DNA from: Pecten maximus | Lineage: Eukaryota | Direction of reading: 5' to 3' | DNA length: 64,000 nucleotides | Assembly (NCBI RefSeq): GCF_902652985.1 | Contig: NC_047019.1 | Span: 23,808,001 to 23,872,000, forward strand | In this document: one piece after another, positions 31,701-57,587 of the stretch | How positions within the stretch are numbered: the stretch's first letter is position 1 | How the letters are laid out: each line of letters opens with the position of its first letter | The notes under the pieces: model-generated | Databases searched by the model: none | What the model was told of the DNA's origin: nothing | What the model saw: only the letters and a program-made list of their open reading frames with translations | Made by a program: the position numbers and the translations under genes

Positions 31701-34700
31701 CAAATTACAATTAGGTTTCTAGATATATAAAACGGAATGAATACTCATGTAAAATACATTTTACAGACGGATTCTACAACTTTTTTCAACGGTATCATTA
31801 TAACTAATAGACGCATTGAGTATTACAAACAATGGTTGACAATCAACACAATTTTGTCACTTCTAAGAATCTATCAATTTGAATGTAAATTGCATTGACG
31901 GAATGTATGCTTATCGGACATAAGAAATGAATAGACAAAGAAAGCATTTCATTTCATTTCCAGAGTACAACTATTATAACGATGGATATATATAAACATA
32001 ACTATATCCATACCTTGTCCGTGAAAGACCACCCTTGTCCGTCCATGAACCAATCTACAACGTCACAGGAGATGGTCTGTTCCAACCCCTTGAGTTTCCT
32101 AACGATCAGGGTACGGTGAGCCCATGGACAAGCTAGGCTGACATACAGGTGATACCGCCCGGACTCTGCCTTATACCCAGACGATCCATCCGCTGTATAG
32201 GCGAGAAGCAAATCAAGAGGCAATGTGAGAGAAGATATTATCATTAATGCCTATTTATAAGCCTATAGTTTTGTTTCTTTCTTTTTCAGTTTTCTTCTTC
32301 TTTCTATTAAATACTTCAAAAGGTCTTGATTGAGGATGTCTCTGCGTTAAGTCAAATGGTGTCTGAAAGTAAAGCGCGCGTGTTTTCTTTATCCTTTTCA
32401 AATTGATTCCTTGCTGACATATTGCGACTCTGTAACATTTCCTATAATAAGTGTGCCACTTGGCAGAAAACTAGTTTTGCGAGCCATGGATATTGTTAAC
32501 TAGCCACATACACAATTAGTATCCAGAGATTATGCTTGGAATGTCCATCAATTGTTTGTAATGTGATAACAGCTAGATCGACAAAAATATCGTTTCCTTC
32601 CTTATATTCAATATACATTGTTACAATACATACCCTTATCATTCGGGTGATTTCCCTGTTATAACACTACTGTATTACCTTATTATTCCCGACTGGATAT
32701 ATTACATGTACCTACTGTAGTTCAGCGTGTGTAAATCCTCACTATTTATGATGACATTCTCATTCAGATGTCACTTACCAGTTATCCTACAAAAAAGAAT
32801 ATCCTGACATTAAAACCTTTTTATTATTTCAAAAGTACAAATTTAGGTATACCGTTATGTTCACAGAAATGGCATGATAAGTACATGTATAACACAGGTA
32901 TACCAAATAAACACATGCAATGTGCATACCTACATGTGTAACAATATATTTCAAACTGAAAGTACGCATTTGTAATTCTACGAAAAGGAGTGCAAAATAT
33001 TTCCAGAAGATTGAAAAAAGGAATGAGTGTACACATCTTTTAATCGAGACACTCGCAATGGAAAAAGTCAATAGATATAATAGTAATGACAACGACCGAT
33101 ATAAAGCATTCAGTTGAAAAGCTAGAACGCACGTTTGTTTATTTCATTCATCAAGCAGACAACCTTGTCTGTAAAGCGATAGATATCTGCTTCTACCATG
33201 GAATGTGTATAAAGCAGTCAGTTGAAAAGCTAGAACGCACGTTTGTTTATTGCATATATCCAGTTGAAAAATTAGAACGTATGCATGATTACCTTTTTAG
33301 CATGGCCTAATCAACGTTTCAGTGATCTCGTTTGTAAAACTATTACAAGGAACATACTATGTAACCAGAGATGTTTTCTTTTTCCCTTTTAAAGGGTATT
33401 TGAATCCTCAGGCGATCACATTTGTTTTCATCGTGAAATTATTTTTGTGATTAAAAGATAATAAATATTAATTATTCGCACTTGTTTTCACATATGTATT
33501 ACGATGTTATCGGATTGAGGATTATCGGTGAGTTTTAGATTTGATTTTAAGCTTAATTTACGTTATGATGTAGGAATAATGCATATTATTTTGTAGAATG
33601 GTATATATTAAATCATGATAGCATACATTTTGGATATGGAGTTTAACTGAATTCGGCTTATATCGAGCTTGAGACTGAGTAAGCATTTCCATACCTAAAA
33701 CTCATACTTGTGATAGGATTACATTTGTGATAAACACGATGTCTATATTTTGATTATGTTTTTGTTGAAGGACGTAAGTTGCAATTTAACGATAGAACTA
33801 CTTTAGAGAGTCAACAAGGATATCCCGACTATGTGTAATGTAAGCGTAAGTGCAAAGTAAACCGGAAATTCACGATGAGATCAGTGTCAGTGTTTCTATA
33901 ACAGTGTACGTGACCCTATGACCAATAATCGGTACACGATATCTAGACCGATATATGATTCTACCGAGGAATGCGTATACTGCGATCATCCAGTTGAAAA
34001 GCTAGAACGCACATTTGTTTACTGTATTCGACAAGCGGACAGTCTGCTCTATAAAGCAGTGTATTTATCCAGGTGAAAAAATAGAACGGATGTATGACTA
34101 CGTAGCATGGCTTAATCAACCGTTTTAATTATCACGTTTGTATAACCAAAACCTGCGTCCTTTTTTGTAACAACTGGTAGGGACATAACCATGGATATTC
34201 TGATCATTCGATTGTCTCTTTAAGAGCGCATAGTCATTTGAAGATTTGATTCCACAATTATTGTTACAAAACCGGTAATAAATAAACAAATAAATGCATT
34301 AAATTTCATAGCCGCTGTCACATACGTATTACGATATATTGGATTATGGATTATTGTCGAGTTTTATATTTGATTTCAAACTTATATTAAGTTATGTTGA
34401 TAAAGGAGTTTTTTTTAGATCATAATACATTATGAGAAACATTTCTTTATAGATATGGAGTTGTTAACTCTAAGCTTCAAAGTGAATGCTGTAATCTCAG
34501 ATCATCCTCCTGTTATAAATGCCTGTTTACTATAACTCCCTATAGGTGATCAGTGTAAACAAATAACTGCTGAAACACTGTGATAGTAATGGATTGAGCG
34601 AACATTTCAATACCTATAGCTTCTACTTGTGATAGGATTTCATTGTTGTTTGGCGTGTGCCTATATTTTGATTATTATTTGTTGAGTAATGTAAGCTGGC

Positions 34701-36226
34701 ATTGGATTACTGCTCTCAGAAAGACAGCAAAGAAATCTTTATCACGTGTTATGATCAGAAGTAAAACGAGTTCAAGATAAACCGGAAATAAAACAGATAA
34801 TAAACAGGAGTAATTCTATAGTGGAGTGAGTTTCCCTTGGACCAATCTTCGGTAGGCAATATCTAGATCGATATCTGGTTCCGCAGAGTAGCGCGCAATC
34901 TCTTATCAGTTGAAAAACTAGAACGTTTGTTCAGTTTACAAACAGGAATGCATGTTTTATTGTACAAGTAATGATAATACATAATCGTTTTTTAGTATCT
35001 CATTGATATCACCACTGTCCCTTACCACCCAGGCCTAGTTATATGTTATTATCATACTGTTTTTATCGATAAGTTTGTCATATTTTAAACTTGATCGATG
35101 TATCATAAGTACGCTGTGTCTGTATACATATGTATTGTTAAGGATTTCAACTTATACACACATACATGTTTTCATAAACATTGTCGAGTTTGTCATATCT
35201 GTGAAAAGCTAACATCGCGCATACCTGACACCAATCTAGACGTTACCTATACAGTTCAATTTCTACACAAGTTAGATTCAATGACACCAAATGTCCATGA
35301 ATTTGACCAGATTAACTGACCGCTTCGCTACTGCACATGATGTAAAAAACATTTTGCAGGAATGATTTTGTGTCAGAAATATCACACATTCTTCCCGATC
35401 CTGTAAATCGCCCGAATGGACCGAAAACTGTGAATTCGTGTCAAATTCCTGTCTTAGAGGTGGTCGAAACGTAACGCGCTCCATAAGGAACTGCTCTATC
35501 GATCATAAAGAAATATTAGTAAACATCCACGTTCTTAAAACTATGATATTCTCCCAAATAAAATGAATAGAATATAACATAGGTCTGTTTCTCACACATG
35601 ATTATCTCAGCCCGAGTGTTAGTGTTTTGCCAGTCAGTACGAGACGTGCCGAGTGCAGGCCAGCCAAACTCTTACACGAGGGTTGAGATAGCCTTGTTCG
35701 CGGAACAGACCCATGTTAACTGTTTTTCTCAGAGACCTGCAAGCAAATGTAAGTTTTTAAAAAAGTTTTTTCATAGCGAAATATAAAATGCTCCTCTCTA
35801 TTCACATGATCAAAATATCATATATTGGGTTTTGCGGACGTTTTAAATGATTTAAGTCATTTTTTAAATGCGCAGATCGATATTGATCTGGTCAAATACA
35901 TGGACAAATGAAACTGATAGGTTTCAATTAGCCCAATTCAACTAGACGTCGGGATATGATGTGTCGAGAGCAACTTAAATTCGTCACTCCATGAAATCAA
36001 CCAAAGAAAGATATGATTCTAATATGATCTTATAGTCAAATCATAATATGCGTTGTATTGTTGTCTGGGTAAATCTTAATAAGATAGATGTTGACATGAA
36101 TAAATTCATTTTTATACTAAAAATAAAGGATGCTTACCAATCGCGGAAGGAAGACTTTACCCTAATGAACTCTCCTTTCATTGAAGTGGGTATTTCAAAC
36201 CCGGCCTTGGGATCAGGAACCGCCAT
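28777..36226 (-). CDS. yqjG: Glutathionyl-hydroquinone reductase (YqjG/ECM4, Xi-class GST), copy A, 328 aa, 9 exons
   Basis: Exons 36226-36138, 32786-32779, 32192-32014, 31718-31646, 31315-31117, 30068-29975, 29633-29517, 29247-29131, 28887-28777 (987 nt, open frame). Motifs: [96 protein letters not shown]. Confidence 0.9.
32779..32786 (-). CDS. 8-nt micro-exon (GATAACTG) of copy A
   Basis: Context ttgtag|GATAACTG|gtaagt. It joins phase-2 exon 1 to phase-1 exon 3, giving W-I-T-A. Confidence 0.85.
33105..34930. repeat. Diverged ~900-bp tandem duplication in copy A intron 1, punctuated by CAGTTGAAAAGCTAGAACG motifs
   Basis: Collinear matches: ~33490/34318 (CACATAxGTATTACGAT), ~33705/34624 (ACTTGTGATAGGATTT), ~33859/34779 (AAACCGGAAAT), ~33920/34840 (GACCAAT..ATCTAGAxCGATAT), 33991/34907. 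Confidence 0.8.
35574..35720. repeat. Imperfect long hairpin, probable terminus of a non-autonomous DNA element
   Basis: TAACATAGGTCTGTT..TATCTCAGCCCGAGTGT pairs with ACACGAGGGTTGAGATA..AACAGACCCATGTTA. Confidence 0.6.
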
Positions 36227-38733
36227 TTCCAAGAGCTGATGAACATATGTATTTTGTTGGCTGTATCTCGTCCTTCCGATGCACGTCCACGTGTGTAGCG
36301 AGTTTTGATTAACACAAGGAGGTTGATATCACGTGGCCACAGTAAACTACGATCGATATACCCGACAGTTTGATACACATGTGAAAGGTACATATGTAAT
36401 CGACATGCACCACTGAGTTCCTAAGCTATATATTGGTTAGGTGTGCATTTTTCTGATCGGATTTTTCATGACCTCGTACAAATACATTATCTTGTAGACT
36501 CTCTCATCATTAGAAGACCGTCAATTTTAACAAAAATGTCAGGTTTTGTCATGTCATACGGCCATGTCAAAAATATCTTAAGACACGTGTAACAACACTA
36601 AGTAAATAACATCGTGATAATGTCACACGATGTTTTGGTGATGGAAATCATACCGTTCGAGTAGAAAATGGTCTTTTAGGGAAATTGATTTGAAAGTTAT
36701 TTTCTAATAATTATTAGTTATTATTACACATAATCATTCGGTTGTGTCGTTGCAATATTGACTTTATTAAACTTGTTTAATTAACTACTCGCTTACGACT
36801 CGTGAGATAGGAAATCATTGAACTTGCTTAAGGAAAGACACTTGTATAAGATCCTCTATATATAATATGGCGGCTGCTGATCAAACTAAAATCTAATTTA
36901 TTGTTAACATTAACCAATTCATTAATAAAACCAGTTATGTGTGTATACCAAACATATATCTGTAAATGTGTTTAAGAGTAGAGTGTTATAGGAAGCCATC
37001 GTGTACAATATCAGTCTGTCAAACTGTCATTTTTTCCGAATGTCTTTTCCAGATGTATGTTTTCCGTAAATATTTTTAAGAATGTTATAGGAAGTCACTC
37101 TTTATCATGCCAGTCTGTCAAACTGTCACTCGGTCTGAAGTCTTTACCAGATCAGTCTCTCATGAGTTGTCTCCTATTGGATCTTGTCGTGTATCCAAAT
37201 ACATTTAATCTAGCAACATTGAAAGAATTCCCAAACTGTTTTCTCTGCTTTTTGAAATCTAACATCTCCCTAATACTGTATACCATTATTATCAATTCAA
37301 TCAATAAAGACAATTAGGATATCTTAACTATTTTGTCTCACACCAAGTGAAATACCTTATCGTCGATTATGATTAGAATATAATATTAGAAGAAAAGCAA
37401 ATTTATTGTTAGTTTTTCAGGGGATAGTGTTCAGTCATATAAGGTATGAAAAAATGTTATCCTTTTGAAACACATTATTTTCTGTGCTGTTCTTGACCCG
37501 GTAACACAAACGCAGGTCCACAATTGTCCTCACAGTTATCCGTGACAGTCGAATTCATGTGAATTAAATTTTTTATTTGTATGCGATATATACCTGTTTC
37601 CATTTCCGAACAAGACAGAGTGATTATTGTTTTTATTAAGTACATGTACATCAAAAGAAATACAACTTATTGCGTTTCTTATTTTCATTATCACAATGAT
37701 AAGGATGAGCATATTTCCTTACACTTATACGTTAGTATCACAAATGAGAAACCCTTATTATGTAAAATTACAAAATGGATATGAAATTCTATATGACTAC
37801 AGGTATATTATGCACTGCAAAAATGCTTCCTAAGTTCAAGAGAGAAGTATTTTGATTGATAAGTAATGAAGCTGTTACAATAACTACTATATTCGAATGA
37901 ATCTCTATTAGATTAACGGCAAGAGATGAAAAAGTTTTCATAAGATTTATGTTTTGTCTTACTCCAATGCTTTCAAGTAACGATAAACTAATAATTCTGT
38001 TTCGTTGACCGTTTCGTTGGCATTTTAACATGTGAACAAAAGATGATAGCTGTTGTAAGTTGTTAACATGGTCCAGCCGCAGTCACCGTCAGACATCGGT
38101 GATCTGCATTCATATAGATCCGATCGATCCTACTGGGGAAGTTGGACAAAGAGTCTCGTGTTCATTATCTAAATAGTTCCGTTGAGTATTTTCGGTAAAC
38201 ATGACCAATCCGACCTGCCGTTATATGTGCCCTTGGTTTTTTTTGGTAATGTTGCAGATACAAAACAATGCCGACACATGGCCACGGCCATATGAATTTG
38301 GATTGTCAATTCTCCAATGAAGTAGAGTCTTTTTGAATTCAAAACATTTTGAATGATCGATATAAATAGAAATTTTCACGTCAAATCGACAATTTTTAAG
38401 CTGGCCCTCCAACACAGGTCAAACGCGTCAATAGAAGAAAGGATTCTGTGGGGGCCAACGATGCTCTGGAATGGTGAAATAAATAGAGTTGGAAACCAAT
38501 GTATACCTTCCGTTTTAAGTTTCTTAACATGACCTCTCTAGCTGCCATATGGAGTGTTAATTATGTTGAAAGACGATTTTTTTTTTAAATCACAGAGACG
38601 AAAATCTTTAGCCAATTGGCTGATTTCAGCCTTTTTGGCTCGCAAAAAATGGTTAATTCCACTAAAGAAATGAATTTCTGCCTTTCTTAAGATTTTCCAT
38701 TTTCATCTCTGAATCTGCAAACAAATGAACAAC

Positions 38734-41700
38734 TCATGTTTTCTGCATGGCCTCCCTGCCATGTGGAGTAGTGAAGTCGATATCTGGTCCAATGGATACA
38801 ATCCTTGTCGGGTTGATCATAGCGTGGCTTGCCTGTGAAAATAACAAAAGAAGATGTATCACATTCCATTACCTTGGACAGGGCGGTCCACACTTGTAAT
38901 GGGTTGAAGTCAACTGCAACACTTTAATGTCATCAGTTCAATCACGCCACATCGGCAATGATTTGTATTGATGAGGTCATATCGACATTACATAACACAG
39001 TTCTAGCTAAGGGAAACAATATTTCACTCTTTTTGGTATGGGTTGATTTCAACCTTCGATTAAACCTCATGTTTGTCACTTTTAGAGCCTTCTCCCCAAG
39101 ATTGAGATCCTGTGTTATCTTCGGAAATGAGGGATTCTATGTATTTGAAGCTTTTACTATATACAAGCATTTATCAAATAAATAATGATGATTATTTTGT
39201 CGATATCATTATCTTGACAACGATTACAGCTAGCAGGGATATGTTACTGTTGCTATAATTTATATTTTGTAACAGACTCACCATGTAGTGTTTAGTGACG
39301 TGTTCAAGGTTCACGGTATCAGCCACCCCTGGGATCTGGCACAATTCCCTCAGGTATCCCCACATGTTAGGGTAGTCAATGATCCGCTTGTTACACTGGG
39401 CGAAATGTATAGAAAAGAAACATATGAAATAAGTTATCTGGGCACCATTGACATTCAAGATTTAAGCATCTTTTTTTTTAATTAGAGAAAAAAAAATTAC
39501 ATTACAACACATTGACATAAATTTACATGTTAACACTTTGATTCCAAACTTACAAACATTTCTTTTAACAGTTATCCGTTTATTTGTTGCAGAGTTTAAA
39601 CGTTCCGAATTTTGATTATCAAGACTGATTATTCAGTATATAATCTTCAAAATACCTTAAAATGTCCTACGTAAACCAAATCAAACCGTATCAGCGTTGT
39701 GAATAGACGGATATCTGCTTCGGTTAGATTACTCCCTGTTAGATAGCGGGTTTTGGACAGAATATGTTGTACCTGTAAAAAAAACAAAGGCACTCAAGCA
39801 AAATGATCAAACCCACAATATCAATTAATCCAAATTTTAGCGACGGAGCTGTCGGCAGCCAAAAGATGAAGATGATCAACCTGACTGTGTATCAAACAAG
39901 ACAAGAAATAGGATGTATATACGTAGACATGATCGTTTTGTATACGAAAGGTGAGAAACATTGTTGCTATGTTCAGAACAAAGAATATGGATTGAGTAAG
40001 TCCTGTGTACCTTGTCAAGACCCTCGAATACTTCACGTACAGCTGCATCATAGGCTTCTTGACTTGTTGCAAAACCGCTTCTGTACACACCATTGTTGAT
40101 CATTCTAAAAAATAGTTTGTATATCAATGTCTGGTGCTTTAGCATCAAAACATGTAATGAGTTGGCCCTATAATAAGTGAATAGAAATGAAAGTTCTGAA
40201 ATAGTAAGTGATAGTTTAGGATAGTTTGTATCAGTTGTCATATGGCGTTCGCAACATATCATATAATATCATATAATAGAAGGAAGGCAAGACACCAGAT
40301 TTTTCTTCCAAATAAATACAGCATGATTAACATGTTAAATTCTCCTCTTTATTTCATATCTACAGGCTATAATCGTATGTAAGCCCCCAACTTAGGATGG
40401 ATTAATGACCTGGAGTGTAGATATTATAATTTCAAATTCTTGTAAATATCACTACAACCAGACCGCAAATTGTCAATTACCTCCCTTACATTGTGTTCAA
40501 AAGCTAAAAACCATTTTTGATACATCAACCAACCTAGGCTCAGAAAGGGATGGTAAATGTATGGAAGTACATCAGATAAGACTTGTTTTGCTAGTCTTTA
40601 GAATATTTTGCAATGTCATAGGGGCTGGAGATGTAAATAAAAGCAGCGTTCAATTTAGTTTGAATTTAGAAGAGACTTTACTGGGATATAGTGAAGTTTC
40701 AAATATCGAATCTGTTCGATGTCTGTCACGTGGTTATGATTAGTCTGTCTCACACTAGAAATTGTGAAAAAACCTATAAGCGATGCTTCATTAATTATTG
40801 ACCGATATCACTAAAACTCTGAAATATATGTCTTCAGCTGGTGATTAATGTTAATGATAATAAAAATGATAAATAACTCTTAACGTAAAAGTAATTCAAA
40901 TTTTGTGCCATGCTCAGTAGTCCAACTAAATATAAACAGAAAAAAGTAATGGATTAATGACTCTACTAGGAGAGGTCTTACATATTGTACCTACGGATAA
41001 CTCCATCGATGTCCTTCCGAAGGGTTTCGGGATAAAAATCTAACATCCGCTGTTCCGCGGTAGAACAGCAACCATTGAATTCTGAGTTAAACATCCAGAT
41101 AATCTCGCTCGACTCGTTGTTTACAATAGTTTTCTGTTGTTTATCCCACAGGACGGGGACGGTGATACGGCCATCATAATCTAAAACATGGCATGCACTG
41201 GTGGTAACATCAAAGGTTAAAAAAATCGGCTAGGGTGAAGGCATATTGATGTTACTGACAAAGTTTCCAAACACAACATGGATTGGAATGGTACTGATAC
41301 TGTTTTAACAGGAGGAATAAAGTGATAGGTTGACTGAATCTAAAAAAAATCAGAACTAGGAAGCGATGTAACTTTAAACATACTTTCAAACACAACTTTA
41401 CTGCATCCTTTTTCTTATAAGTGCCATTTAGATGTTGTAAAATGCATTGTAAAATGCATTGCTAACGTGAAGTACATGAATTGAGAGAAACTAACATCTT
41501 AATAGGCCAACAATGATGAAATTCAATCGCCATAACGAGAATTTGACTGACCTGGGTTAGCTATTTGGTAAACCTCCCGCAATCGTGAACAACCGTTGAC
41601 AGTGTCAAAAGTACAATCAGCTTTCTGTGTAAACATAAAACAAGATCTACATTCATTTTCTTTATGACGGAATTTCGGAATGGCACGTTAACGAGTTTTC

Positions 41701-44700
41701 TATAGACTCAATGAATGGTGAAGGGGAGGGGGGGGGGGGGGGGGGGGGGGGGGCAAAACAACATTTGAACATAACATATATATAAACGGATATCAGAAGA
41801 GAATAGACATACAAAACATTTTGTTTTATTTTTCTACATATTATACCTGTTGCAAGTTTATAACCATGAATACATACTTTGTCTGTGAAAGACCATCCTT
41901 GTCCATCCAGGAACCAATCTACAACGTCATAAGAGATGGCCTGTTCCAATCCCTTGAGTTTCCTAACGGCCAGGGCACGGTGAGCCCAGGGACAGGCTAG
42001 GCTGGCATACAGATGATACCGCCCGGACTCCGACTTATACGCAGACGATCCATCCGCTGTACGTGCGAGACCAATGAATAGCGTGAAATAAGCAAAAATG
42101 CATATTGAGAGAAGAATTCGTCGTTATTGACAGTCATTCATTATTGGCAGTCATTAAAAAAAATTCTTGCTTTTTCAACATGAAATTTTGCACTTACTCA
42201 CTTTTAGGCTACATCTTACATATTCCATCTGTTCGATTATGTCAATGCATTAAACAAAGAATAAGAAGAATGTCAAACATGGAGAAAAAATATAATCAAC
42301 CTTATACATGTAGCATGAATCATATGCAATTCTGCTTCAAAACACTTATATGCATTTATATAATGTTAAATCTATTGAGAAGCATTTGAAATATCATCAC
42401 CAAATTGCTTGATCTGATTGCTATCTAAAAAATGGCGAACTAGTAACATTTCTTGTGCTGTCGTGGGATATTAATTACAGGTTAATTCGATTAACAAGAA
42501 CAAGTCTTCCCAACCTTCCTAAGAAGAGTGTTATTCAATACTTTCACAACATGTTGTTACAGTACAGGTAAACTTATCATTAAGTAATTTGATTGTGATG
42601 ACACCCTATAATTCTCCAACGTTATACTTTAAAACTTCTTACTTCACTCCAGCATGTGAAAATCCTACGGCTCATGACGTCATCATGTAGCCATTCAAGT
42701 TTCACTTACCCGTTATCCTACAACAAAGTAAAATCCTAATGAAAGCAAATATAGGTTTAAAGCTATATATTTAATCATTATATGAATAATCTTCATAACA
42801 CAGGACTTTAGAAGATAAATACATTTATACATGAAAACCTAATTATGTATGTCATCATTTTAAACCGAAAGTGCGTCCATGAATAGGTAATACCAGAAAT
42901 TGTACATCATAATAAGGAGAGATAATTCGGCCATAGTTAAAAATAAATACAATTTGTTGATACTTTGTTCTACTATAAACTACATGAAGAAATATAACAG
43001 GAAATTATATGTCCATGGGTGGTACAGGTAAATACTCCGCGAAAGGTCTTGTCCTAAATGGCTTGCTAAGTAACTATTTCCTTTCTTAGAGAACAACAGT
43101 AACTGGTAGAGAGTAATTATCTAAGTATTCATCTCATAATCAATTGTTTTCACAAAACCACTTTTCACAAGTCGCTCATATTATTTTTATTGTGTGTTTT
43201 TTTCTGTTATTTATCGAAATACGTATGATTGTCTAGACCGATGAATTTTACTCGTCCCCTTCGTCCCTTTAAGTTATATTAATTACAAGGGGACTTGTCA
43301 CGAATCCCAAACCCATAATATATCATACATATATACATGGACCATGGGTTAGGATTTCGTGAAAGGTCCATATGATTTCAAAATTGTACTTTATGACATC
43401 CTCTGATTAACCATGATTTCATCGTCTAACAGTAACATTGGTGATGTGATTATAACGACCGGAACTACCACCCCAGACCTGCCATGTAGTAGCTAATGAT
43501 ACAGTACACATTTTACATATCGATAAATCTACCGTAATTTCCTGCGTATTGCCCGCGGGCTATACGATTTATTTTACACCAGAAGATGTCTAGCGCAGGC
43601 CTTATGCTGATGTAGCCTATCTGTGGATTTTTTTTACTAAATCAAAAAAAAAAAAAAAAAAAAAAAGGTGGGCTATACGTTGTTAACTTTTTCCATTTGT
43701 ATTGAAACAGCAGATAAAGTAACTGATTTCAATGCGTTATATTCATGCATATGTAGGCTAGATCTAAGCTAGTTGTAAACAAAGTAAAGTGTGATAAGTT
43801 TAAATATAGATATATTTACAAAATAAACACAATATTTCCATCATATGTCTATGATTTCTATCATTCAACACATCATCGGTAAATCACAAAGTCACCATCC
43901 GTCAAAGTATGATGGCTCAGAATCACTTTTAAATAAATCCAGATTGACCTGGTCTAGTCGAGCAATCTAGGTAAGTGGTAAGTCTTCGTCGCTGTCGACG
44001 TATAACCTGCGGGCAATCTGCTAGTGCGCGCTATCTGGAATTTATTTTACAAAAGCATAAAAATGCCTTAATCCACTTCCCGGGGCTATACCCCGGAGCG
44101 GGCAAAAAGCAGACAATTACGGTACTGTAATAAGTTGCTTTCCAAAAACGGCCGATATAACCAGGATGCATGCAATTTTAACCTATGGCCTGTTTATCAA
44201 ATGTCCATACAGACATTTTCATATTGATATTAACATTTCGTTTCAGATACAACATATAAGTACATTTATAGGAATCATAATCTTTATTCAAATATATCAC
44301 CAAGATTTTTGCTATGATTTTTTTCCGAGAATTCCTTTATGAAATTACCCTGGTGATCGTGCTGTAAAAATGTCTACATCAACAATTTTGAATGAATTCG
44401 GACGCCGATTGTTAAAACACATAAAGGATTGCAATGGATAATCCATTTTTAAGCAACAATCATATTTGAATATGATTAGCAAGATCAAATAATTGTATTA
44501 AATATCAGTGTTCAATGTAAACAAACTTGTATCATCATTATTGAAAACAATATATTTTACTTCCTGAGGTAAACTGAGCCATTAATTAATGTATCACTAG
44601 ACTAGATATACGTATGTATTGTGAAAATGAGGATGGGGAGATTACCTTGTTCAAATTTTCAACTAGGTCATCAATGCCAATATTCTACCTCATCTCTGCT

Positions 44701-45980
44701 GTTAGATTACAAATGTTGATTTCTCCAATCTTATTATTTTTTGGAGTATACCATTAACCTTGTTATGTAATTGATATTCAAAGACAGAATTTGAAGTCCT
44801 TGATAAATGACATTTGCAACACGTATTGGTCTCCATTATCATTCTTTGTTATTTCTAACAGCTGCTGTCTCTTGGCTCAGTTTCTTGACAGAGATGACAT
44901 CAATGACATGTTTTTCACATCATCATAAACAGCCTTAACAAAATGTCAAACTATTATTGAAAGGTAGATGCGTTAACCATTCAAGTCAACATATATCAGC
45001 TGAAGAGTAAACGCCGTTATCATATAAATTCTACAACACTATTAATAAAAATGCAGAGGTTACTGATCGACGATGAAATTATAGTTAATCAGTAATTGTT
45101 TAAGTACATGTATTATAAATCAAACAGTCGGATGGGAGGAGTAATGTTCAGGGGTCAGGAGTATGTCATCTCACCTGTACTAATGGTCAATGCCACAGTT
45201 ATAGCTTGACACCTGTTTACAGTATACTGGCTACATTGAGCTGACGACGGCTTAAGATTTACAATCCAATTACTACCATCCTAGATTGATGTTGTAGTGA
45301 CAAGATAATATCTATTCTGTTATGCTGAAACATCACATGTACTAAATTCCATTCCAAGAACATTTCATAAGGAACATTTGTAGGAACTATATCCTGTGAG
45401 AAATACGATGAGGTATTCATACACGGAAATACAAAGAAAAAGGGAACTATCAAATTGTAACATGGCGGAAACAATTATTTTGGGTTGTCTCAAAGGGAAC
45501 GGGACCAAAATGGATGAGTACAGCTGCTCGCAGCTATTGAAGTTAAAATTCTACCGTCCAAAAACACTGCTGAAAAAGATAGCGACTTGCTGTGAAAGCC
45601 GTGAGCCATTCGAAAACAAAATATAATATCCCATTTGCAGTAAACAACCGTGGCTAATGCAGTGATGTCCAGGCGCCCACGCAATAAAGTGTGCATGTAA
45701 ACACAATGTGTTGTTTTGCAACCTGATATTTTTAAAAACTTATATAATGCATACAAATGTACACGCTATGCCTTTGATTGCAATGATTAATCAGTGAAAA
45801 TATTATCTTCCATCGAAGGTTTGTGAATATCTAGAAATGAATGTTGTTGTGTTTCACCTGGGATACACCTTTACACTAATTCTATGCTTACCAATCCCGG
45901 AAGACTGATTTTGTTCTGACGAATTCCCCTTTGGTTGAGGTAGGGAATTTTAACTCGGCATTGGGATCGTTGTCTGCCAT
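38734..45980 (-). CDS. yqjG: Glutathionyl-hydroquinone reductase copy B; 13-nt deletion in exon 5 (pseudogene, or rescued by a shifted donor)
   Basis: Exons 45980-45892, 42717-42710, 42056-41878, 41624-41552, 41180-40995 (or to 40982), 40104-40011, 39772-39656, 39395-39282, 38832-38734. CPWA is retained. Exon 5 is 186 nt versus 199 nt in paralogs; exon 8 has an in-frame 3-nt loss. Confidence 0.8.
42710..42717 (-). CDS. 8-nt micro-exon (GATAACGG) of copy B
   Basis: Context ttgtag|GATAACGG|gtaagt. Confidence 0.85.
43530..44124. mobile_element. Tc1/mariner-pogo-type MITE
   Basis: 25-bp TIRs CCGTAATTTCCTGCGTATTGCCCGC / GCGGGCAAAAAGCAGACAATTACGG (4 mismatches), flanked by TA on both sides. Confidence 0.8.
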
Positions 45981-46299: not shown

Positions 46300-46690
46300 A
46301 TTCGAAGGACCAAGGTTCGCTTTTGCCATGCCGTGGTGTCCGTCCGTTAGGCCGTCTATATATCCGTTTATATACAATTTAAGCGCCGGCTGTTAACTAG
46401 TATGTATTGTCAATGTAGATGAAATTTGTTCAAAGAATTCAATTCACAAAAATATATGCTGAAGTAGAACATCAAGGTAAAGGTCGAGGTCTTTTGGCCA
46501 AGAGGTCGATGTAAAAGTTTATATCTTCATCGATGGATATTACGTTTGTGAGAAATAAATAAGGAGCCAAACAGAAAATATCAAGGCCACGGGGTCAAAT
46601 GTCACGGTCATTTTGGTCCAATGGGAAATGTTTTGCCACAATCACTGAAATAACCAGGTGAGCGACACAGGCCATCTGGGTCTTTTGTTC
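46300..46690 (+). mobile_element. Short Helentron-like element related to 7334-10619, opposite orientation, no internal array
   Basis: The end ACCAGGTGAGCGACACAGGCCATCTGGGTCTTTTGTT closely matches the reverse complement of 7334-7369. GTCCGTCCGT lies near the other end. Confidence 0.65.
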
Positions 46691-46931
46691 ACTTCTAGAA
46701 AACTGCATTAATAACTGCTTCCTTCATTAATGTTGGTTGTACATGCTGGCTGCATATCACCATTTTATGAGCCCCAGCTATCCTTTAACATACACCCGTT
46801 TATTATGACGAAATCGGTGTGGAGTATGTCCTCAGAATGTCTTTACCAGATAATCTTCCTGTATGAGCGTAGAGGGGTGTGGCATCCTAAGCCACACCCG
46901 TCTAAGGTCACTGTGGGGGTATATAGAGAGC

Positions 46932-47630: not shown

Positions 47631-48223
47631 TATAACCGCAGACATTGCTTTTGATACATGTACGTATATAGAATACGTGTGACCCCTTCGATCTGAATCA
47701 GTAGATATAGTTAGTGTTCATACAAACATGAATGACAACGTTTATTTGTTTAATTTTTGCAATTGTAACAAATGGTAAACACAACATGAGTATTAGACCT
47801 AATGATAAGAAATGGATGACTAATGATATCAGACTACATATAAGGCAAAGGAATAGAGCACACAGGAAAGCAAAAACCACTAATTCAATTATACATTGGG
47901 AGAATTATAGAAACAAAAGAAATGAAACCATAAGTAAGATACGGGAAGCAAAGAAAACATATATTGAAAATTTACAAAAATTACTTAATGACAAAACTAT
48001 ACCTCCCAACAAAAGGTGGAAAATTGCACGGAATGTTCTAAATATAAATAACAAATCCACGTCTATCCCCCCACTAGTACACAATAACAATCTTACCCAA
48101 CATCCATTTGACAAAGCTGAGTGTCTTGATAAATATTTTGTTTCTATATATATACTACCTCACCTGACACTGGACCAGTACCTGAAGTTTCCAACAATCC
48201 CCAGCATTCCATAAACAATATCA

Positions 48224-48845
48224 TATTCTACCATGTTTGCTATGTAACGCCAGTTTTGATTGGTTAAAATCATGTATTATTTTCCAATAACCCACGCTCG
48301 TGCCAATAATGCACGCTCGTGAGTCACGGCTGTTGCAATTTTAAATATCTAATATTCACCCGTTTCATGAAAGGTTACTGTAGCCGAGTGGGCTAGTGGG
48401 TTAGTCTTTCAATATATTTTTATCACGACGCGAGTTCGAATCCTACGGAGGCCCCAACTTTTTTCTTTTTTTTTATCCTTTTTTTTTATTTTCAAAATCA
48501 ATGCCATATGCTAGATGCTCTTGATCGTAGTACTGTATTGCCTGTATATTTCATCAACAAATAATGCAATACTCAAGAAATAAATTACAAGGTTTTCCCG
48601 GGGTTTCTTTGCTGTTTTTCTATTAGAAAGAGGTCGATCTCAGAACTAAACAGTACATGGTAGAATAGAAATAATCAACTTTGACTCGTGTATTGTTGCA
48701 GGATATACAACTCGGACTCGGATATTTTGCAATTTTAATTAATAACTCAGGCCTGCGGCCTTCGTTATTAATTTAATTGCAAAATATCCTCGTCCTCGTT
48801 GTATATCCTGCAATAATACACGAATCATCGTTAATTATTTCTTAA
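48224..48845 (+). mobile_element. ~620-bp non-coding insertion in the LINE ORF2, with asymmetric inverted repeats, a tRNA-like Pol III unit and a terminal ~87-bp-arm hairpin
   Basis: LINE peptide ..HSINNI | ITEQDVKDQL.. is split here. IR TATTCTACCATGT (48224-48236) / ACATGGTAGAATA (48655-48667). Hairpin 48667-48842. Confidence 0.75.
48373..48460 (+). ncRNA. tRNA-derived Pol III-type unit (not a canonical tRNA)
   Basis: A-box TAGCCGAGTGG, B-box GTTCGAATCC (48434-48443), 5' GGTTACTGTAG able to pair with 3' CTACGGAGGCC, and T-runs from 48459. Confidence 0.5.
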
Positions 48846-50238
48846 ATAACTGAGCAGGATGTTAAAGATCAGCTATTCCTTTTGAATGGAAACAAACCAT
48901 CAGGACCCGATGATATGATCCCCAAAATAATCAAAAACCTTCACCCCTCTATACTCCTTCCTCTCACTCTTTTATTTAATAAAACACTTGAAACAGGTTC
49001 AATTCCACTTAACTGGAAAATGGCTAATATCAATGCCATATATAAAGGAAAAGACTTAATCAATGAAGTGTCAAATTACAGACCCATCTCGGTTACATCA
49101 TGTTTTAGTAAAATGTTAGAAAAAATTATATTCAAATACCTATACAATTACCTGACTACTTATAGAATTATTACTAAACATCAATTTGGATTTACACCAA
49201 AAGATTCTACTGTTAATCAATTATTGTCTATCTACCATACCATTGTTAACTGTCTGGATCAAAATAAAGAAATCAGATTCATTTTCTGTGACATAAGTAA
49301 GGCTTTTGACAGGGTTTGGCATGAAGATCTACTTTATAAATTAGAATCATATGGTATTAAAGGGAATCTCTTAAACTGGTTCAAAACATTTTTATCGGAC
49401 AGAAAGCAGAGAGTTTTAACTGAAAGTCATGCATCTACATTTGATCCAGTCCTGGCAGGAGTTCCTCAAGGGTCTGCCTCGGACCATTAATGTTTTTAAT
49501 TTATATTAATGAAATTGTTGATTGTGTCACTAACAAAATTAAGCTATTTGCCGATGACACTTCTCTTTAAGGTATAAGTGATAACAACCCCATGGAATCA
49601 GCTCAAAACTTATCTGATGATTTAAATAACATTAAAAACTGGGCAACTAAATGGGATATTAAATTTAATCCTGCTAAAACACAATCAGTAATTTTCTCTA
49701 GAAAAAATGATAAAAACCATCCTATTATAAATTTCTATGATGAACCAATTACTGAAATCAAAGCACATACACATCTAGGTCTAACTCTGAATGATGATGC
49801 CAAATGGAACCAGCATATATCTAATGTTTATGATAAAGCATTTAAAAGGATTAACATATTAAGACTACTGAAAAATAAAATAGATAGGAAATCTTTAAAT
49901 ACTATTTATACTGCCTATATAAGACCAATTATTGAGTATGCAGATGTTGTTTGGGATAACTGTTCAAAAGCCCAAAAAACTCTATTAAAATCAATCCAAC
50001 TGGATGCAGGACGATTAATTACAGGCCTACGAAAAGGTACTTCACATGATAAACTGTATAATGAACTAGGATGGGAAACATTAATACAGTAATAGAAGAA
50101 ATAAACATAAACTTATTTTAATGTACAAGATAATGAATAATGAACCCCCAGATTATTTAAGAGGAAAATTATAGAACCGTATATTCATGATGAAACTCTT
50201 GATCGTTATACTCTTCGTACAAACAGATTATTTATTTG

Positions 50239-50271
<33 letters not shown>

Positions 50272-50944
50272 TTGTGCCGAACAGTGAATTATTTTGAAAG
50301 TTATTTTCCATCTATGTTAAACGAAATGAATAGTCTAGCCCCTCAACTCATAAATATCAACTCTACAGCACAGTTCAAAAAATCATTAAACACAAACTTG
50401 CATAACAAATCTGATACAACTGATGTCTTTAAATATCTCGGTAGTCGTTGCATAAATATTGTTCTATGTCAACTACGAAATAAGGCAAGTAATCTCAATT
50501 ATGATCGTTATAAAGATCATCTAATCGAATCCCCAATGTGTGATTGCAACCAGTCTTTTGAAACTGTAACTCATTATTTTACTGAATGCAATAAATATCA
50601 GAATCTCCGCCAATCTCTTGAACAACAATTAATACATCAATATCACAATCACATGGTTGTGTCAGCTGCAATGACAACCAGAATAAAGATATATTGGTAC
50701 ATGTATCAAACTTTATAGTACAGTCAAAGAGACTCTAAAATTTATTTATTATTATTATTTCTTTTTTTTTTTAATGAAATTCACATATACTTTGAACTAT
50801 TTATTCTTCAGTATGAAATAATATCTTAACCCTAAGATGACCACCATGATACAGCAGGCTATGGGCAGCCGTACTAAATCTTAATTACATCAATTCACTT
50901 ACAATTATGTTATGTATGTTTTATTATATTTATATATCAGATAG

Positions 50945-51238
50945 AGGCAACTCCTATTAGTAAATTTCTCATAAATATTAATCTATCAGATCAAGTTGGT
51001 GTAACCCACCCTAAAAATACGTATCTATTTGGTGAATTTGGGTTTTGATCCCTATCAGTGGATGGCTATTGTGTTACACAAATGGACTTTAAGGCCTGTA
51101 TCTGTTGGGGGAATAAATTCAATTTGACCAAATAGATGCACTCAGCAATCAAAAAATAACATCCAAAATCATTTTAGAGTTTCACCTCATTTTTGTATAA
51201 TAAACCTTTGTCTTCACATTGAGGAGTTGCCTTCCCTT
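50945..51238. mobile_element. MITE-like insertion in the LINE 3' UTR
   Basis: Inverted repeats AGGCAACTCCT (50945) / AGGAGTTGCCT (51222-51232). Confidence 0.55.
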
Positions 51239-51709
51239 TTGTTGCACCATTGTTAATCTTAATTCATGTGTGTATATATGTTTATGTTTGTTTGCCACCT
51301 ATTATAATAAGGAGAGGACTAATATAGGCAATGCCTGATGTCTAATCCTATTGACAAAATTACATCTTATGTCAATAAAATATGTTGAAATTGAAATTGA
51401 ACATGAGTATCTATTTCCCCATACATGTACGTTAAGAGCACACACACATGGTGCACTCTGATAATATAAAATGGAAACGGATGCATGTCTATACATTTAC
51501 ATAGTATGCACGTCCAATACAAAATCATCATTTTGTGTTATAAAACTTCAAATAGTTGAAAGAAAAACTAAAATTGACTGAACGCCATTGGAATGAATAT
51601 TATATTACGGCTTCTGTCAGATCTCATTCAAGCTGAGGGAGCATATGTTCATTTTTATATCATATTAAAGATAATTGTTGAAATCTGTAAATCAATGTTA
51701 TCTCCTGTT

Positions 51710-54700
51710 TTAACTTCTTAACATGGCGTCCCTGCCATGTGGAGTGGTGAAGTCAATATCCGGCCCAATGGATACAATTTTTGTCGGGTTGATTACAGTA
51801 TGACTTGTCTATAAAGAAAATAAATAAAGCAATATATTTAGATATAGGGTGTTTCAGCTGTGTTGAATGAAATGAAATATGAATTGGTTGATAAAAAGGA
51901 TCTCAACATTACATAATAAACCATAACTATAATATATGTCAATCGATATACGTCCTCATAATATCACTAAATATCGCGATTCCGTACGTACAACGTGTAG
52001 TAGTGACATGTATAATTGTTTATTGATAGATATCACCTACACATGTACCAAACAGTACGACGTGTGTTACATTGTGATTATGATCAATACTAACAATGGT
52101 TAAGAAAATGCAACTATAAAGTTTATATCATTTTTCTAAAACGCTGTCAAATAATCATTTTTTACCAAAATCATTGTTTTGAGGACGAAGCAGCTGTATG
52201 ATGCAGGTCGATCTGTTATTTCATGCCTTTTGTAAAATCCTCTTAAACGTAATGAAGGAATTGACCGTAAAGGAAACTTACCAGATAATGTTTAAAACAT
52301 AACATTGCTACACGTTTTACATATTGTTTGTATACAATATTGATTAGGTTTGCAACAAACTCACCATGTAGTGCTTAGTGATGTGTTCAAAGTTCACGGT
52401 GTCAGCCACCCCCGGGATCTGGTACAACTCCCTCAGGTATCCCCACATGTTAGGGTAGTCTACAATCCGCTTCTTGTTACACTGGGCGAAATTATATCAT
52501 ATATTACGAGGTTTCATATCAAATTAAGATTACCATAACAATTTGAAACCGAACATAGTCATATCTTTCGTAACTGTTATCCGTTGAATTAGTGCTTATT
52601 TGTTCCGAATACTGATTATCATGATCAAAAGTTCGGTATATAATCTTGAACTTACCTTGAAATGCCCTACGTAGACTAGATCAAACCGCATAAGCGTTGT
52701 GAATAGACGGATATCCGCCTCTGTCAGATTACTTCCGGTTAGGTAGCGGGTTTTAGACAAGATATCTTCTACCTAAAGAAACGGAAACAAAAATAACGCT
52801 TTAATTGAAACAGAATTCTTAAAGCCGACATACACATCCATTTTACATTTAAACAAGGGAGCTTATATTAGTCAGAAGCAAAAGGATGTAGATACTCATC
52901 GTGATAGTGTCGCCCTACATAAGGCTAGGTTAAAAGTATTCTAAAAGAGAGCATTATTACTATACATTTACATATCTCCCTTCTTAAGCTTCATAAACTC
53001 TGACTGCGAATAAAATAGTAAATACGCAAAGAAAAAAAAGCTCAGCGTATTAATAAGCGCGGGAATCGGTAATATAATTCATGACATCGTCTTTTTGTGA
53101 CGTGATGAAACGTCAACTAGACGGCGCCCTATTGTAATGACTGATCAACGTAATTCTAGTGTTTTCTCCTTTTACCTGATGATCTCTGTACAAAAACGAC
53201 AAGTGAGTTTTTGTTAAAAACTATACTGAATATTACGGAAATGCATAGGTGCATATTTAACTTTCCACGAGAAAGGCTAACAACAAATAACTGAGACATA
53301 CAGCTCCAAGAACATTCGAACACATCACTACTATATCTGTGTCAATGCGCTCTGTGCATGACAACCATGATTAATCTGAGACGGAAATTGTGGATTGTGA
53401 ATATATCAATTCATTAAAGACGTGAAAGATATTAAACAAAAATGTTTAGTTCTTTTAATTTTGTTAACTATACTGGTGTATTTACGTAGATTCACTGGAA
53501 CTATATTAGCTTAACAACCATAGTTACCGACGTCGCAACACATCTCGACTTTCATTTTCTTCGTAGGTATTTCAACGATTTGTTTGCTGTAATCATGAGG
53601 ATTGTACCCTATTTTGACTGCCTATTCGGTAGTATGTCCGCAGTTGGCAACGGACATATTCTATGGAGCGCTATCGCGCTAATCATAGAAAACGTTCATT
53701 GCCTCCTGCGGATAGTCATAATGAGGTACAATCTTTAATTACAGACCAATAAGTACGCATCGAGTAAGCATGTGTACCTTGTCGAGACCTTGGAAAACTT
53801 CACGTACAGCTGCATCATAGGCTTCTTGACTTGTTGCGAAACCGCTTCTGTACACACCGTTGTTGATCATCCTAAAACAAGGCTTGTATATCAACGACTG
53901 GTGCTTTGACATCAAAACATCTAACGATGTGGCCTTATTATAAGTGAATGTAAGTGAATGTACGTAAATATGTCATGCATGCGAAGAATACTTACGTTTT
54001 TATGCTTGATATGTAGACTTACTTATGTTTTGTTTTTTGATGGATATCCGACATATATTATGACGTTCGCAAGAGTGTTCTTTGTGAAGGAATGAATACA
54101 TGGTACCAGATAAATACAGTGTGTTAAATGATTCTCCCCTTTATTCATTATCTATATATCAGGGGAAAGAAAAACAAATCTTGATCTAACCAGGATTCTT
54201 GACGCTAAACAGGTATCCGTTTTAGTTTATTTTTGTATTCTTCTTTACTACTTTTACCAATACGATAATGCATGCAGCTTCCTATATTGTAGTTTGAAAA
54301 TGATATATAATGTTTGAATATTTCATCTTTCTCTCTGTGGAGCCTTAAAGTTTCAAACGAGGTAACAAATGATTCTTTCTTAAAATATGTGCGATTATCA
54401 TGCTTGAAGCGTTGTGATATATTAACATTGCGCTAAATTAATCATTGATAGATAGCGTTTGAAAGTATGCATTGTTTTGGAAACAGAAGAAAAAAATACC
54501 TTCAGTCGGTAATTAACAATGAAATACTTATTTCTTAACAGTCAATCATTAATTTCACTTTTCAAATACATACGGATAAATCCATTCGTTAATTTCCTCG
54601 ATGTCCTTCTGGAGGGTCTCAGGGTAAAAGTTCAACTTCTGCTGTTCCTCGTTGGCACAGTAAACATTGAATTCCGAATTGAACATCCGGATTATCTCGC

Positions 54701-57587
54701 TCGACTCGTTGTTTACAATGGTTTTCTTTTGTTTATCCCAAAGGACGGGAACGGTGATACGGCCATCATAATCTAAAAACAGGACAACATGCCATGCACT
54801 TGTAGTAATATCAACATCGACAAAAGTAATGATAAGTCCTCCAAGGTGAGGCCAGGATAATGCTGCTGACATAGCTATAGAACTTGATAACAAAAGATAA
54901 GTAAGAGATTGATAAGGTTGATCGTAAATAGGAATTGATAGTTCAACAACACTACGCGGGTACCTATATAAAATGAAACATCAGAAACTGGGCAGCGAGG
55001 ATACCAATTTAAACTGAAACATCAGAGACTGGACAGTGAGGATACCAATTTAATCTGAAACATCAGAGAATTGGCAGTGAGGATACCAATATAATCTGAA
55101 ACTTCAGAGACTGGGCAGCAAGGATTCCAATATAAACTGAAACATCAGAGACTGGGTAGCGAGGATAACATATAATTTGTAACATTTGCGACTAGAGGCA
55201 TTGATGTAACAATTGATCTTTCTGTATTTTCTTTAATAATTCATTAATATTGTGTAAAATACACCAGCAATGTTACAAACCATATACCAGAACAGATTAA
55301 CGAGACAATATGTCTAAACTATTCAGGGAAAATTGATACTGAGAGTAATTTACCGACCTGGGTTAGCCATACGATAAACATCCCGCAACCGCGAACAGCC
55401 GTTGACTGTGTCCAAAGTACAATTGGGTTTCTAGATAAAGAAAACCAGATTAACATCCAGAAAATCAAAATGATTGACAACGAAATATTATCAAATATTG
55501 AAAGAAAAAATAACAACCAAGCATCAGCCATTTGGACCTAAATACCGAAAGCCTGCTAAAAGGTATGTTGCTTTCCGCAATGAATGCTAATTAAGTATAT
55601 GAAATGAATATGATTATGATGATGGCTGGTTTTATGTACATGTTTTGTATGGTGGGAATCCAATGATTGCCTGGATGAACGACCGTTGTCAGTGATGGCC
55701 ATGGTTATTTCGTGGTTCGACATTTAGATAGTGTGATAGGATTCTTCACTGAACGACACCTAGGATCGCTGATCTAATTTTCAGTGGCTAAGATGATTTG
55801 ATAATAATTGTAGTTATATATAAATTATATATTTGCTTGTTAACGTGCATCTCTGAGAGGGCTAATATGGCATGTTGCCAAATAATTTTGTGTTAACGTT
55901 GTTTGAAATGAATTGATACCCACAAAGTACTGAATCCTTTCTATACCAAGTGTAACCATTATTTTATTGGAATAGAAAATACAAACATACCTTGTCTGTG
56001 AAAGACCATCCTTGACCGTCCAGGAACCAGTCTACAACGTCATAAGAGATGGCGTGTTCCAACCCCTTGAGTTTCCTAACGATCAGGGTACGGTGAGCCC
56101 AGGGACAGGCTAGGCTGACATACAGATGATACCGCCCGGACTCTGCCTTATACCCAGACGATCCATCCGCTGTATATGTTAGAGTCATTGAATGGCGAGA
56201 TATCAATATAGGTATATCAGAATAAGACTTTATGGATCATGTATTTTCAGTCCATTTTCTTATTTGTATTCTTTGTTAAATGTTCAATTTTATCTTTCTG
56301 ATTTTTAATCGTCATCTTATCTCATTATTATCTAATACACGTAGGATGTACTCTACATTACCGTCTTTAAAGTTATAACATCTCCATAAAGTGATGGTAA
56401 TTCAATACAGACTCGATCACACAAAAAAAAAAGAAAACAAATCTGTCCAGTGTATACTTTAAAACGAATTTGCCTTTTATTGCTTAAAATTCGTGGCAAA
56501 GTGTGTTATATATTATTCATGGAACTATATCAATAACACCACTTCATTCTCACCACTATTAGTGTCTGTTCACGTTACTACACAGGAATATTGTGTAACG
56601 GGGATTACCTCCCCTGTACGCCTTTCCATTTCGTTTGGCTGATAAGAAATTGAAGCATAGCGACTATTTATTATATTATGAATTAATGAAGTAAAGGAGG
56701 TGTAAGCCACGAAACTGTTGAAAATTAACCTTCTGTATAAGCATCCGGGAATCATGTGGCCCATGATGTCATCTAAGGTTATCAAGTATTACTTACCGGT
56801 AATCCTACAACAGAGAAAAAATCGTGATGAATACCTTTGTGTTTACCCTGTTTACATTTAGGTATACCATATATGGGTAGTATTCATCACACAGACACAC
56901 CAAATAGACATGTAGATATGTATTCGGTGCACATGAACAGCTAATGATATATTAAAAAACGACAGTTCATGTACATAATTGTATGTAATATCGAAATGGT
57001 AACCAACTTTTTTTTTTTAAATATATCAAATATGGAAAACAATAAGGTCATAGACAGAAAGATCATCTGATTGATAAGATATTTTCATTGTAAGGAATTG
57101 AACCTTTAGTTTCTGTAAACATTTTTATGATCTCTTAGTAGTAGCTAGTTTTGTATAGCGGTGTGGCGTACCTAAACATTATTCTGAGTTCATCGAAGAA
57201 TTAACTCAGTGGTATTGTCAGTTCAGTTGAAAAACTAGAACGCGTGAAAAAATCAGAATGACCGCACCCCCACAGGTCTAAGTATAAAATTTGAACTAAC
57301 AATACAGTAATAAATAACACTGTGTACCGGTCGATAAATATACGGTACATATATATATTCACGTTTGTAGAGTATGAAAACACATTGTGGTGAAACGCGA
57401 AAGCATGTACGTGAACACAAGTGCTCCCTAGCCCAGACAGCCCATTTGTATATGCCGGGAAAATAAAATTAGCGTTTTATCAAAAGATCAATGCTTACCA
57501 ATCACGGAATACTGATTTAGCCCTAAGGAACTCTCCTGTGGTTGACGGAGGTAATGTAAACTCTTTCTTGGTATCAGGGACAGCCAT
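51710..57587 (-). CDS. yqjG: Glutathionyl-hydroquinone reductase copy C, 324 aa, 9 exons
   Basis: Exons 57587-57499, 56804-56797, 56169-55991, 55430-55358, 54772-54574, 53871-53778, 52772-52656, 52481-52365, 51808-51710 (975 nt, open frame). All family motifs are intact. Confidence 0.9.
54970..55172. repeat. 41-bp-unit minisatellite, ~5 copies, in copy C intron 4
   Basis: GAAACATCAGAGACTGGGCAGCGAGGATACCAAT recurs at 54975, 55016, 55057, 55098, 55139. Confidence 0.9.
56797..56804 (-). CDS. 8-nt micro-exon (GATTACCG) of copy C
   Basis: Context ttgtag|GATTACCG|gtaagt. Confidence 0.85.

Follow-up and report, generated by a model that had tools for sequence, protein, structure and literature searches.

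An 8-nt coding micro-exon in tandem, predicted glutathionyl-hydroquinone reductase genes of the scallop Pecten maximus: required for the reading frame, likely constitutive and probably born by intron gain

Introduction

In the available text of PMC7821500, a mouse study, the strongest splice signals are those of constitutive microexons. For C. elegans, the accessible sections of PMC13247117 report that NMD can hide heavy exon skipping at steady state, the inclusion of fubl-1 exon 2 being 83% in the wild type versus 22% in NMD mutants. Regarding the enzyme family concerned here, a CPWA motif near residue 50 and a protein of about 330 aa are given as Xi-class features in the accessible parts of PMC4138524 and PMC6345682. 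In these same parts, PMC6345682 describes the Xi class as absent from animals, whereas PMC4138524 places it in “some metazoan” and excludes mammals alone. A literature search outside subscription papers and supplements returned no paper on the 8-nt exon described here or on the structure of a mollusc Xi-class GST gene. Here, such a gene cluster was analysed in a stretch of 64,000 nucleotides of Pecten maximus (the window), to which the positions below refer.

Results

The GHR cluster comprises tandem nine-exon genes on the minus strand, paralogs A, B, C and D. Paralog B (324 aa; 51710..57587) has coding exons at 57587-57499, 56804-56797, 56169-55991, 55430-55358, 54772-54574, 53871-53778, 52772-52656, 52481-52365 and 51808-51710. 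The nine coding exons of paralog C (38734..45980) lie at 45980-45892, 42717-42710, 42056-41878, 41624-41552, 41180-40982 (or -40991), 40104-40011, 39772-39656, 39395-39282 and 38832-38734, and those of paralog D (328 aa; 28777..36226) at 36226-36138, 32786-32779, 32192-32014, 31718-31646, 31315-31117, 30068-29975, 29633-29517, 29247-29131 and 28887-28777. Paralog A, 328 aa in all, has exons 5-9 at 60304..63383, exons 1-4 being located past the right end of the window. The original prediction spoke of three complete GHR paralogs; three copies are indeed present in the window, but there are four paralogs in all and gene C is not plainly intact. In comparison with A, B and D, exon 5 of gene C is missing 13 nt at its end, the homologous donor leads to a stop at codon 180, and a shifted donor is needed in the predicted model, candidate donors for exon 5 being located at 40995, 40991 and 40982; exon 8 displays a 3-nt loss.

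Assignment to the enzyme family draws on several comparisons. Residues 14-320 of the gene B protein in RefSeq (P0001) align to PDB 3r3e (E. coli YqjG) with an E value of 1.4e-116, and 11 solved sequences were matched at E <= 1e-20. CPWA is located at residue 54 in all four models, which are 323-328 aa long. Moreover, NNGVY, RFDLVY and KHY match, in the alignment, the tyrosines that form the triad of the H-site in YqjG and NmGHR, and all three tyrosines are retained in 4/4 paralogs. The N- and C-terminal GST domains were recognized as PF13409 and PF13410, respectively, while NCBIfam returned 0 families for 3/3 proteins. The cluster genes are predicted glutathionyl-hydroquinone reductases, that is, Xi-class GSTs.

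Exon 2 of each gene is a micro-exon of 8 nt. It can be observed at 32779..32786 in gene D (GATAACTG), at 42710..42717 in gene C (GATAACGG) and at 56797..56804 in gene B (GATTACCG), so that the three exons previously claimed are exact in sequence and position, with the strand being minus. The copy of gene A, again GATAACGG, is located beyond the window at G000:C5:23873584-23873591, as obtained by a pattern match to the genome. The pattern YAGGATHACNGGTAAG has 3 matches in the window; 0/100 shuffles reached 3, the largest count being 0. Across the 918-Mb genome, TTGTAGGATHACNGGTAAGT has 4 matches, every one within the GHR cluster, with 0 for the reversed control. With a looser YAG-8nt-GTRAG pattern, 7 matches were obtained in the window, and the micro-exon is therefore identified by its coding fit rather than by the splice pattern alone. 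The phase is 2 at the end of exon 1 (89 nt) and 1 at the start of exon 3; the 8 nt complete Trp30, code Ile31 and Thr32 and begin Ala33 (W-I-T-A), and the copies differ at third codon positions only. The phases and the third-position differences are as originally proposed. These 8 nt form a genuine coding exon, required for the reading frame.

Assembled contigs from four runs, including X1 (study P1) and X3 (study P2), were aligned to gene B only and were taken as RNA because they are spliced. In X1 and X3, from two studies, 8 letters fitting GATTACCG join exon 1 to exon 3. Joints for introns 3-8 were present in 4/4 runs, and one bridged joint for introns 1 and 2 in the 2/4 runs with cover of exon 1; X6 had none and X2 had a 12-letter overhang, neither being counted for or against. 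These contigs reflect the presence of the micro-exon in one gene of four rather than its inclusion level. Furthermore, the 3/3 RefSeq cluster proteins among the matches contain FRDWITADG (WITADG in P0004, gene C), two of them (P0001 and P0003, genes B and D) being equal to the models letter for letter, contrary to the expectation that gene predictors would miss the exon. The frequency of the loose pattern and the existence on paper of in-frame alternatives, an acceptor at +55 (B, C, D) and a donor at -7 (B, D), could be taken to mean that the 8 bases are a chance motif and that another donor or acceptor restores the frame. Such alternative sites would delete conserved residues, however; the residues coded by the micro-exon are present in homologues from bacteria to amphioxus, and 4/4 genome matches fall in GHR cluster genes. 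A chance motif is refuted for gene B by the RNA contigs carrying the 8 bases, and its probability overall is negligible.

The splice sites of the micro-exon are the most uniform in the GHR gene, exon 2 being the sole internal exon with 4/4 copies agreeing in both the last 6 bases of the acceptor and the first 6 of the donor. A perfect GTAAGT donor and a ttgtag acceptor were found in all four, and the acceptor tract contains 10-12 pyrimidines in 15, according to simple consensus counts rather than a trained model. The segment is thus internal, no longer than 30 nt, flanked by canonical AG/GT in 4/4 copies and present in spliced RNA of gene B, as expected of a microexon, and the strong flanking signals characteristic of constitutive microexons are present in 4/4 copies. 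An upstream UGC is a feature of SRRM4-type microexons. Within 25 nt of the acceptor, TGC is absent in 4/4 copies, one being located at -30 in gene C. This absence, the 8-nt length and the strong sites do not match a neural microexon of the SRRM4 type.

Skipping of the micro-exon was computed for all four genes. As had been claimed, the resulting frameshift acts before the catalytic Cys: the stop arises at codon 37, ahead of Cys54, and lies 157 nt upstream of the junction between exons 3 and 4 in 4/4 genes, exceeding the 55 nt before a downstream junction used as the NMD criterion. In gene B, exon 3 (179 nt; 55991..56169, minus strand) both codes the catalytic-type CPWA and carries this premature stop. 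Later in-frame Mets in the paralogs are located at residues 82-146, all beyond Cys54, and re-initiation after a skip would therefore yield no active site. These properties would suit a regulated “essential” micro-exon, whose skipping in certain tissues or under stress leads to frameshift, NMD and lower GHR output, a regulator being bound by the conserved downstream stretch; non-triplet essential exons masked at steady state do exist in C. elegans, according to the accessible text of PMC13247117. Nevertheless, frame dependence is common to 5/7 internal exons, exons 2-6 being non-triplet in 4/4 genes, and the splice sites are strong and invariant. The skipped junction was listed in 0/4 runs for gene B (56169-57499), in contigs that cover exon 1 in two of these and that drop rare or NMD-degraded isoforms. 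Moreover, the NMD-coupled cases in the same portion of PMC13247117 show an enrichment of genes for RNA binding and splicing.

Evidence from the downstream flank points both ways. The surrounding introns had been described as diverged, which does not hold wholly: the 80 nt 3' of the micro-exon (56711..56790 in gene B, minus strand) keep residual similarity among the four paralogs, with 19 invariant columns in 4 copies compared with a mean of 6.9 and a maximum of 13 in 8 shuffles. Shared stretches include ATG-N2-TCAT and an AAG(T/A)AGG-like sequence, and the flank could act as either kind of enhancer. It is the best conserved of 16 flanks (19/80), in favor of regulation, but the flank following exon 7 comes close (16/80) and the paralogs are young enough for the similarity to be neutral. 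A Nova-type YCAY cluster downstream of the micro-exon was not enriched, the counts of 3, 2, 2 and 2 being matched or exceeded in several other flanks. On balance, regulated skipping, and with it the splice-controlled switch originally suggested, appears quite improbable. The same doubt applies to the broader proposal that a lineage-specific intron gain made the 8-nt essential exon an NMD-coupled dimmer on a tandem quinone-detox array, controlled via the conserved downstream stretch.

Regarding origin, the 11 scallop proteins all fall into a single clade of the tree (100/100), with Pecten B, C and D together (97/86), and the paralogs differ by 0.23-0.35 at four-fold sites. In the read-throughs P0083, the N-terminus of which is identical to Ostrea edulis P0117, and P0031, FRxWIT-G is followed by 45 or 48 unrelated residues and then ADG. 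This arrangement is consistent with a single intron, located at the Ala position. Seven ORFs with coral, octocoral or sponge best matches, on contigs of 246 kb-1.16 Mb, have the motif unbroken with neither intron. A pattern scan of metagenomes provided 6 loci: L011-L013 share the Ala-position acceptor and a 179-nt exon 3, with no micro-exon candidate within the 157, 533 and 257 nt available upstream, the introns of L008 and L009 lie at other positions, and L010 has none. Searches for ORFs holding exon 1 alone returned 2 weak matches and 4 long proteins, in which the matched stretches were short or absent. No intron 1 was found in non-scallop sequence, the scan and the ORF searches having reached no informative case in either direction.

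Since the oyster and P0031 ORFs display the downstream intron only and the coral- and sponge-like ORFs neither, the micro-exon probably came about through the gain of an intron 8 nt upstream of one already present, an origin resting on two read-throughs known as protein rather than DNA. With just these two ORFs lacking intron 1 alone, and with plant micro-exons merging into their neighbours on loss of a flanking intron (PMC8831610, accessible part), an ancient micro-exon lost through loss of intron 1 in oyster and others may be considered; the origin would be altered, not the constitutive function. That history is rather unlikely: both informative ORFs are without intron 1, neither intron is present in the coral-, octocoral- and sponge-like ORFs, and no intron 1 was found in the non-scallop sequences reached. 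As a separate observation, Argopecten P0006 reads WITETADG, for which a doubled micro-exon was considered, but an acceptor 6 nt upstream would explain it equally well.

Discussion

With good confidence, the 8-nt segment is regarded as a real coding exon that is spliced in gene B and likely constitutive, probably born in the ancestral scallop GHR gene when a new intron entered 8 nt 5' of an older one. Strong splice signals would keep inclusion near complete, as suggested by the fact that a transcript without the micro-exon would meet a stop at codon 37 and be lost. Presence in all copies would then reflect inheritance via scallop-specific duplications together with coding constraint, rather than conservation of a regulatory switch.

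A constitutive micro-exon is of little import, since such exons are well described and that of the scallop is already in RefSeq models. Modest value lies in a tidy case of micro-exon birth, the second intron lying 8 nt from the older one and being absent in oyster-like sequence. Spliced, intron-rich Xi-class GST genes are, moreover, confirmed in animals, which PMC6345682 denies and PMC4138524 allows in their accessible parts. If regulated skipping were true, it would represent a young NMD switch on the detox enzyme array of a filter feeder, and a datable birth of a splicing switch.

Compared with Xi-class GSTs and GHRs such as E. coli YqjG and the yeast ECM4 type, the same full-length similarity, CPWA and conserved tyrosines can be observed, whereas the scallop gene belongs to an animal, has nine exons and stands in a tandem array of four copies, its activity being predicted. 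Like the neural nSR100/SRRM4 microexons, the scallop exon is an internal exon of very small size in an animal gene; most of the neural ones keep the frame and have weak splice sites (PMC7821500, accessible text), while the scallop exon is 3n+2 with strong sites. Exon 2 of fubl-1/fubl-3 in C. elegans, in the accessible sections of PMC13247117, is likewise non-triplet, and its skipping brings a stop over 55 nt ahead of a junction; that exon is skipped, whereas the scallop host is a metabolic enzyme rather than an RNA-binding protein and the gene B contigs display inclusion only. The scallop exon also resembles constitutive microexons of mouse (PMC7821500) and small plant microexons (PMC8831610), which in the available text share a length of 15 nt or less, AG/GT, strong signals and a conserved protein motif, about half of the plant ones being non-multiples of three like the 8 nt here. 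The scallop micro-exon differs from these in residing in a mollusc gene, in being apparently lineage-restricted rather than deeply conserved, and in being already represented in RefSeq.

Micro-exon and gene array

The 8-nt exon 2 is a real, RefSeq-annotated and most likely constitutive exon of the tandem paralogs A-D, predicted to encode glutathionyl-hydroquinone reductase (GHR). Copies are located at the originally given positions in genes D (32779-32786), C (42710-42717) and B (56797-56804); all three are on the minus strand. The pattern YAGGATHACNGGTAAG matched three times in the window and 0 times in 100 shuffles; its 20-base form matched four times in the 918-Mb genome, always inside the GHR cluster (control matches, 0). 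The fourth copy belongs to paralog A and lies 1.6 kb past the window's right end, exons 5-9 of that gene being within the window. Each gene comprises nine coding exons of 89, 8, 179, 73, 199, 94, 117, 117 and 99-111 nt, with 114 nt for exon 8 of gene C.

The top protein matches are labeled "glutathionyl-hydroquinone reductase YqjG-like" from Pecten maximus. Our models of genes B and D are identical, letter for letter, to RefSeq proteins P0001 and P0003, and FRDWITADG is also present in P0004 (gene C). The micro-exon, which gene predictors had been expected to miss, is annotated in all three RefSeq models found. The gene A protein was absent among the 120 matches listed. Two models of other bivalves (P0008, P0140) begin just before ADG, which may reflect mispredictions or alternative first exons. 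E. coli YqjG (3r3e) was aligned to P0001 at E 1.4e-116, and all four paralogs carry CPWA at 54 along with the tyrosine triad; an NCBIfam search returned no family for any of three proteins. GHR activity would be expected from family membership.

The original description of three complete paralogs needs a caveat, as gene C may not be functional. Its exon 5 (40982-41180, minus strand) lacks 13 nt at the end in comparison with A, B and D, and use of the homologous donor (GTAGGT) leads to a stop at codon 180. The frame is recovered with either of two later donors, 4 or 13 nt beyond it. The second, GTAAGA, also restores the 199-nt length and is used in RefSeq, giving IRRYNI in place of NEWIYP. The donor may have shifted in compensation, or the copy may be decaying.

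Identity between the paralogs forms a mosaic across exons: 96% for A-B in exon 3, 96% for B-D in exon 8, 93% for B-C in exon 6 and about 80-89% for the others. The exon 6 likeness sits in a 230-nt similar block that takes in intron. Such a pattern is as gene conversion would give. Elsewhere in the window are a fragmented reverse-transcriptase element between genes B and C (47732-50718, plus strand; RVT_1 E 1.7e-20 at 48846-49487), a BIR (inhibitor of apoptosis) domain ORF (19324-19872, minus strand; E 1.7e-27) and an exon of a DGCR6-family gene (23090-23407, plus strand; E 5.6e-16). Self-comparison displayed tandem-repeat arrays at 1-1107, 2282-3038, 7677-9042, 9214-10455, 11405-13204, 13375-14313 and 60654-60972, with periods of about 55, 68 and 135-160 nt.

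Splicing of the micro-exon

RNA contigs from four runs were aligned to gene B, reflecting the presence of inclusion rather than its level. Introns 3-8 appeared as joints in every run. In X1 and X3, from two studies, a single joint links 56174 to 57498 with "AT" in between. In the X3 contig, exons 3 and 1 are separated by exactly 8 letters according to the record positions; these (five aligned with one mismatch, the mismatched letter itself not printed, then AT and one more) fit the reverse complement of GATTACCG. The X2 contig aligned up to 56174, followed by 12 further letters, and in X6 exon 1 was not covered. For gene B, inclusion was observed in X1 and X3, and no direct exon 1-exon 3 joint was listed among the contig joints of the four runs. 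Within intron 6 of gene B, many short, deep contigs with loose ends pile up at 53000-53740, where depth in X1 exceeds 1000; a dispersed repeat would give such a pattern.

Translation confirmed the proposed frameshift: in all four genes, skipping leads to a stop at codon 37, upstream of Cys54 and 157 nt ahead of the next junction, and nonsense-mediated decay would be expected. Since exons 2-6 are all non-triplet and loss of any one truncates the protein, frame dependence is not peculiar to exon 2.

It is likely that the micro-exon is constitutive. Exon 2 is the sole internal exon with acceptor and donor hexamers both identical in all four copies, its donor being a perfect GTAAGT. According to PMC7821500, strong signals mark constitutive microexons in mouse; according to PMC8831610, about half of plant microexons no longer than 15 nt have a length not divisible by three. 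A regulated switch is improbable. The 80 nt 3' of the micro-exon rank first for conservation among 16 flanks, which would favor regulation, with 19 invariant columns (the next, after exon 7, has 16; shuffled mean 6.9, maximum 13, in only 8 shuffles) and pairwise z of 1.8-7.5. Skipping of essential exons can also stay hidden in steady-state RNA, according to PMC13247117. Some residual intron similarity is expected given the youth of the paralogs, with differences of 0.23-0.35 at four-fold sites and a single clade uniting all 11 scallop proteins at support 100/100 (tree of 39 rows, none dropped).

Origin and comparison with known systems

The 120 matches listed include ORFs called on unspliced DNA. 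In two of them, P0031 and P0083 (the latter sharing an identical N-terminus with Ostrea edulis P0117), FRxWIT is separated from ADG by G plus 44 or 47 unrelated residues, as would be expected if the Ala codon held an intron and the Trp codon did not. In P0009, P0015, P0039, P0091 and P0094, similarity ends near the same point, exon 1 not being shown. Metagenome loci L011-L013 share this acceptor, and the exon of 179 nt, with the scallop genes. Searches for the micro-exon in other genomes retrieved no locus that showed it. The motif is read through unbroken in seven long-contig ORFs (coral, octocoral or sponge best matches) and P0035. The simplest reading of these proteins is that an older intron at the Ala position was present first, and that a later one, 8 nt upstream, would have severed the micro-exon from coding exon 1, ahead of the duplications in scallops. 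Possibly the Trp-codon intron was instead lost in the oyster lineage.

Argopecten irradians P0006 reads WITETADG, with two extra residues at the junction that could derive from use of an acceptor lying 6 nt before exon 3. At locus L010, a 2-kb metagenome contig carries an animal-like GHR ORF that lacks introns and has 68% identity to P0001; it may be a transcript, a retrocopy or a gene of an intron-poor lineage.

Among the papers listed in literature searches, none on this micro-exon was found. PMC6345682 places Xi-class GSTs outside animals; PMC4138524 includes some metazoans. Contrary to the former, database matches include Xi-class GST among named sponge, coral, mollusc, echinoderm, hemichordate and amphioxus proteins. 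Separate tandem expansions of these genes are observed in scallops (window 28777-63383 and protein matches), and a table of PMC11036304 includes, for quagga mussel, one protein spot labeled YqjG-like.
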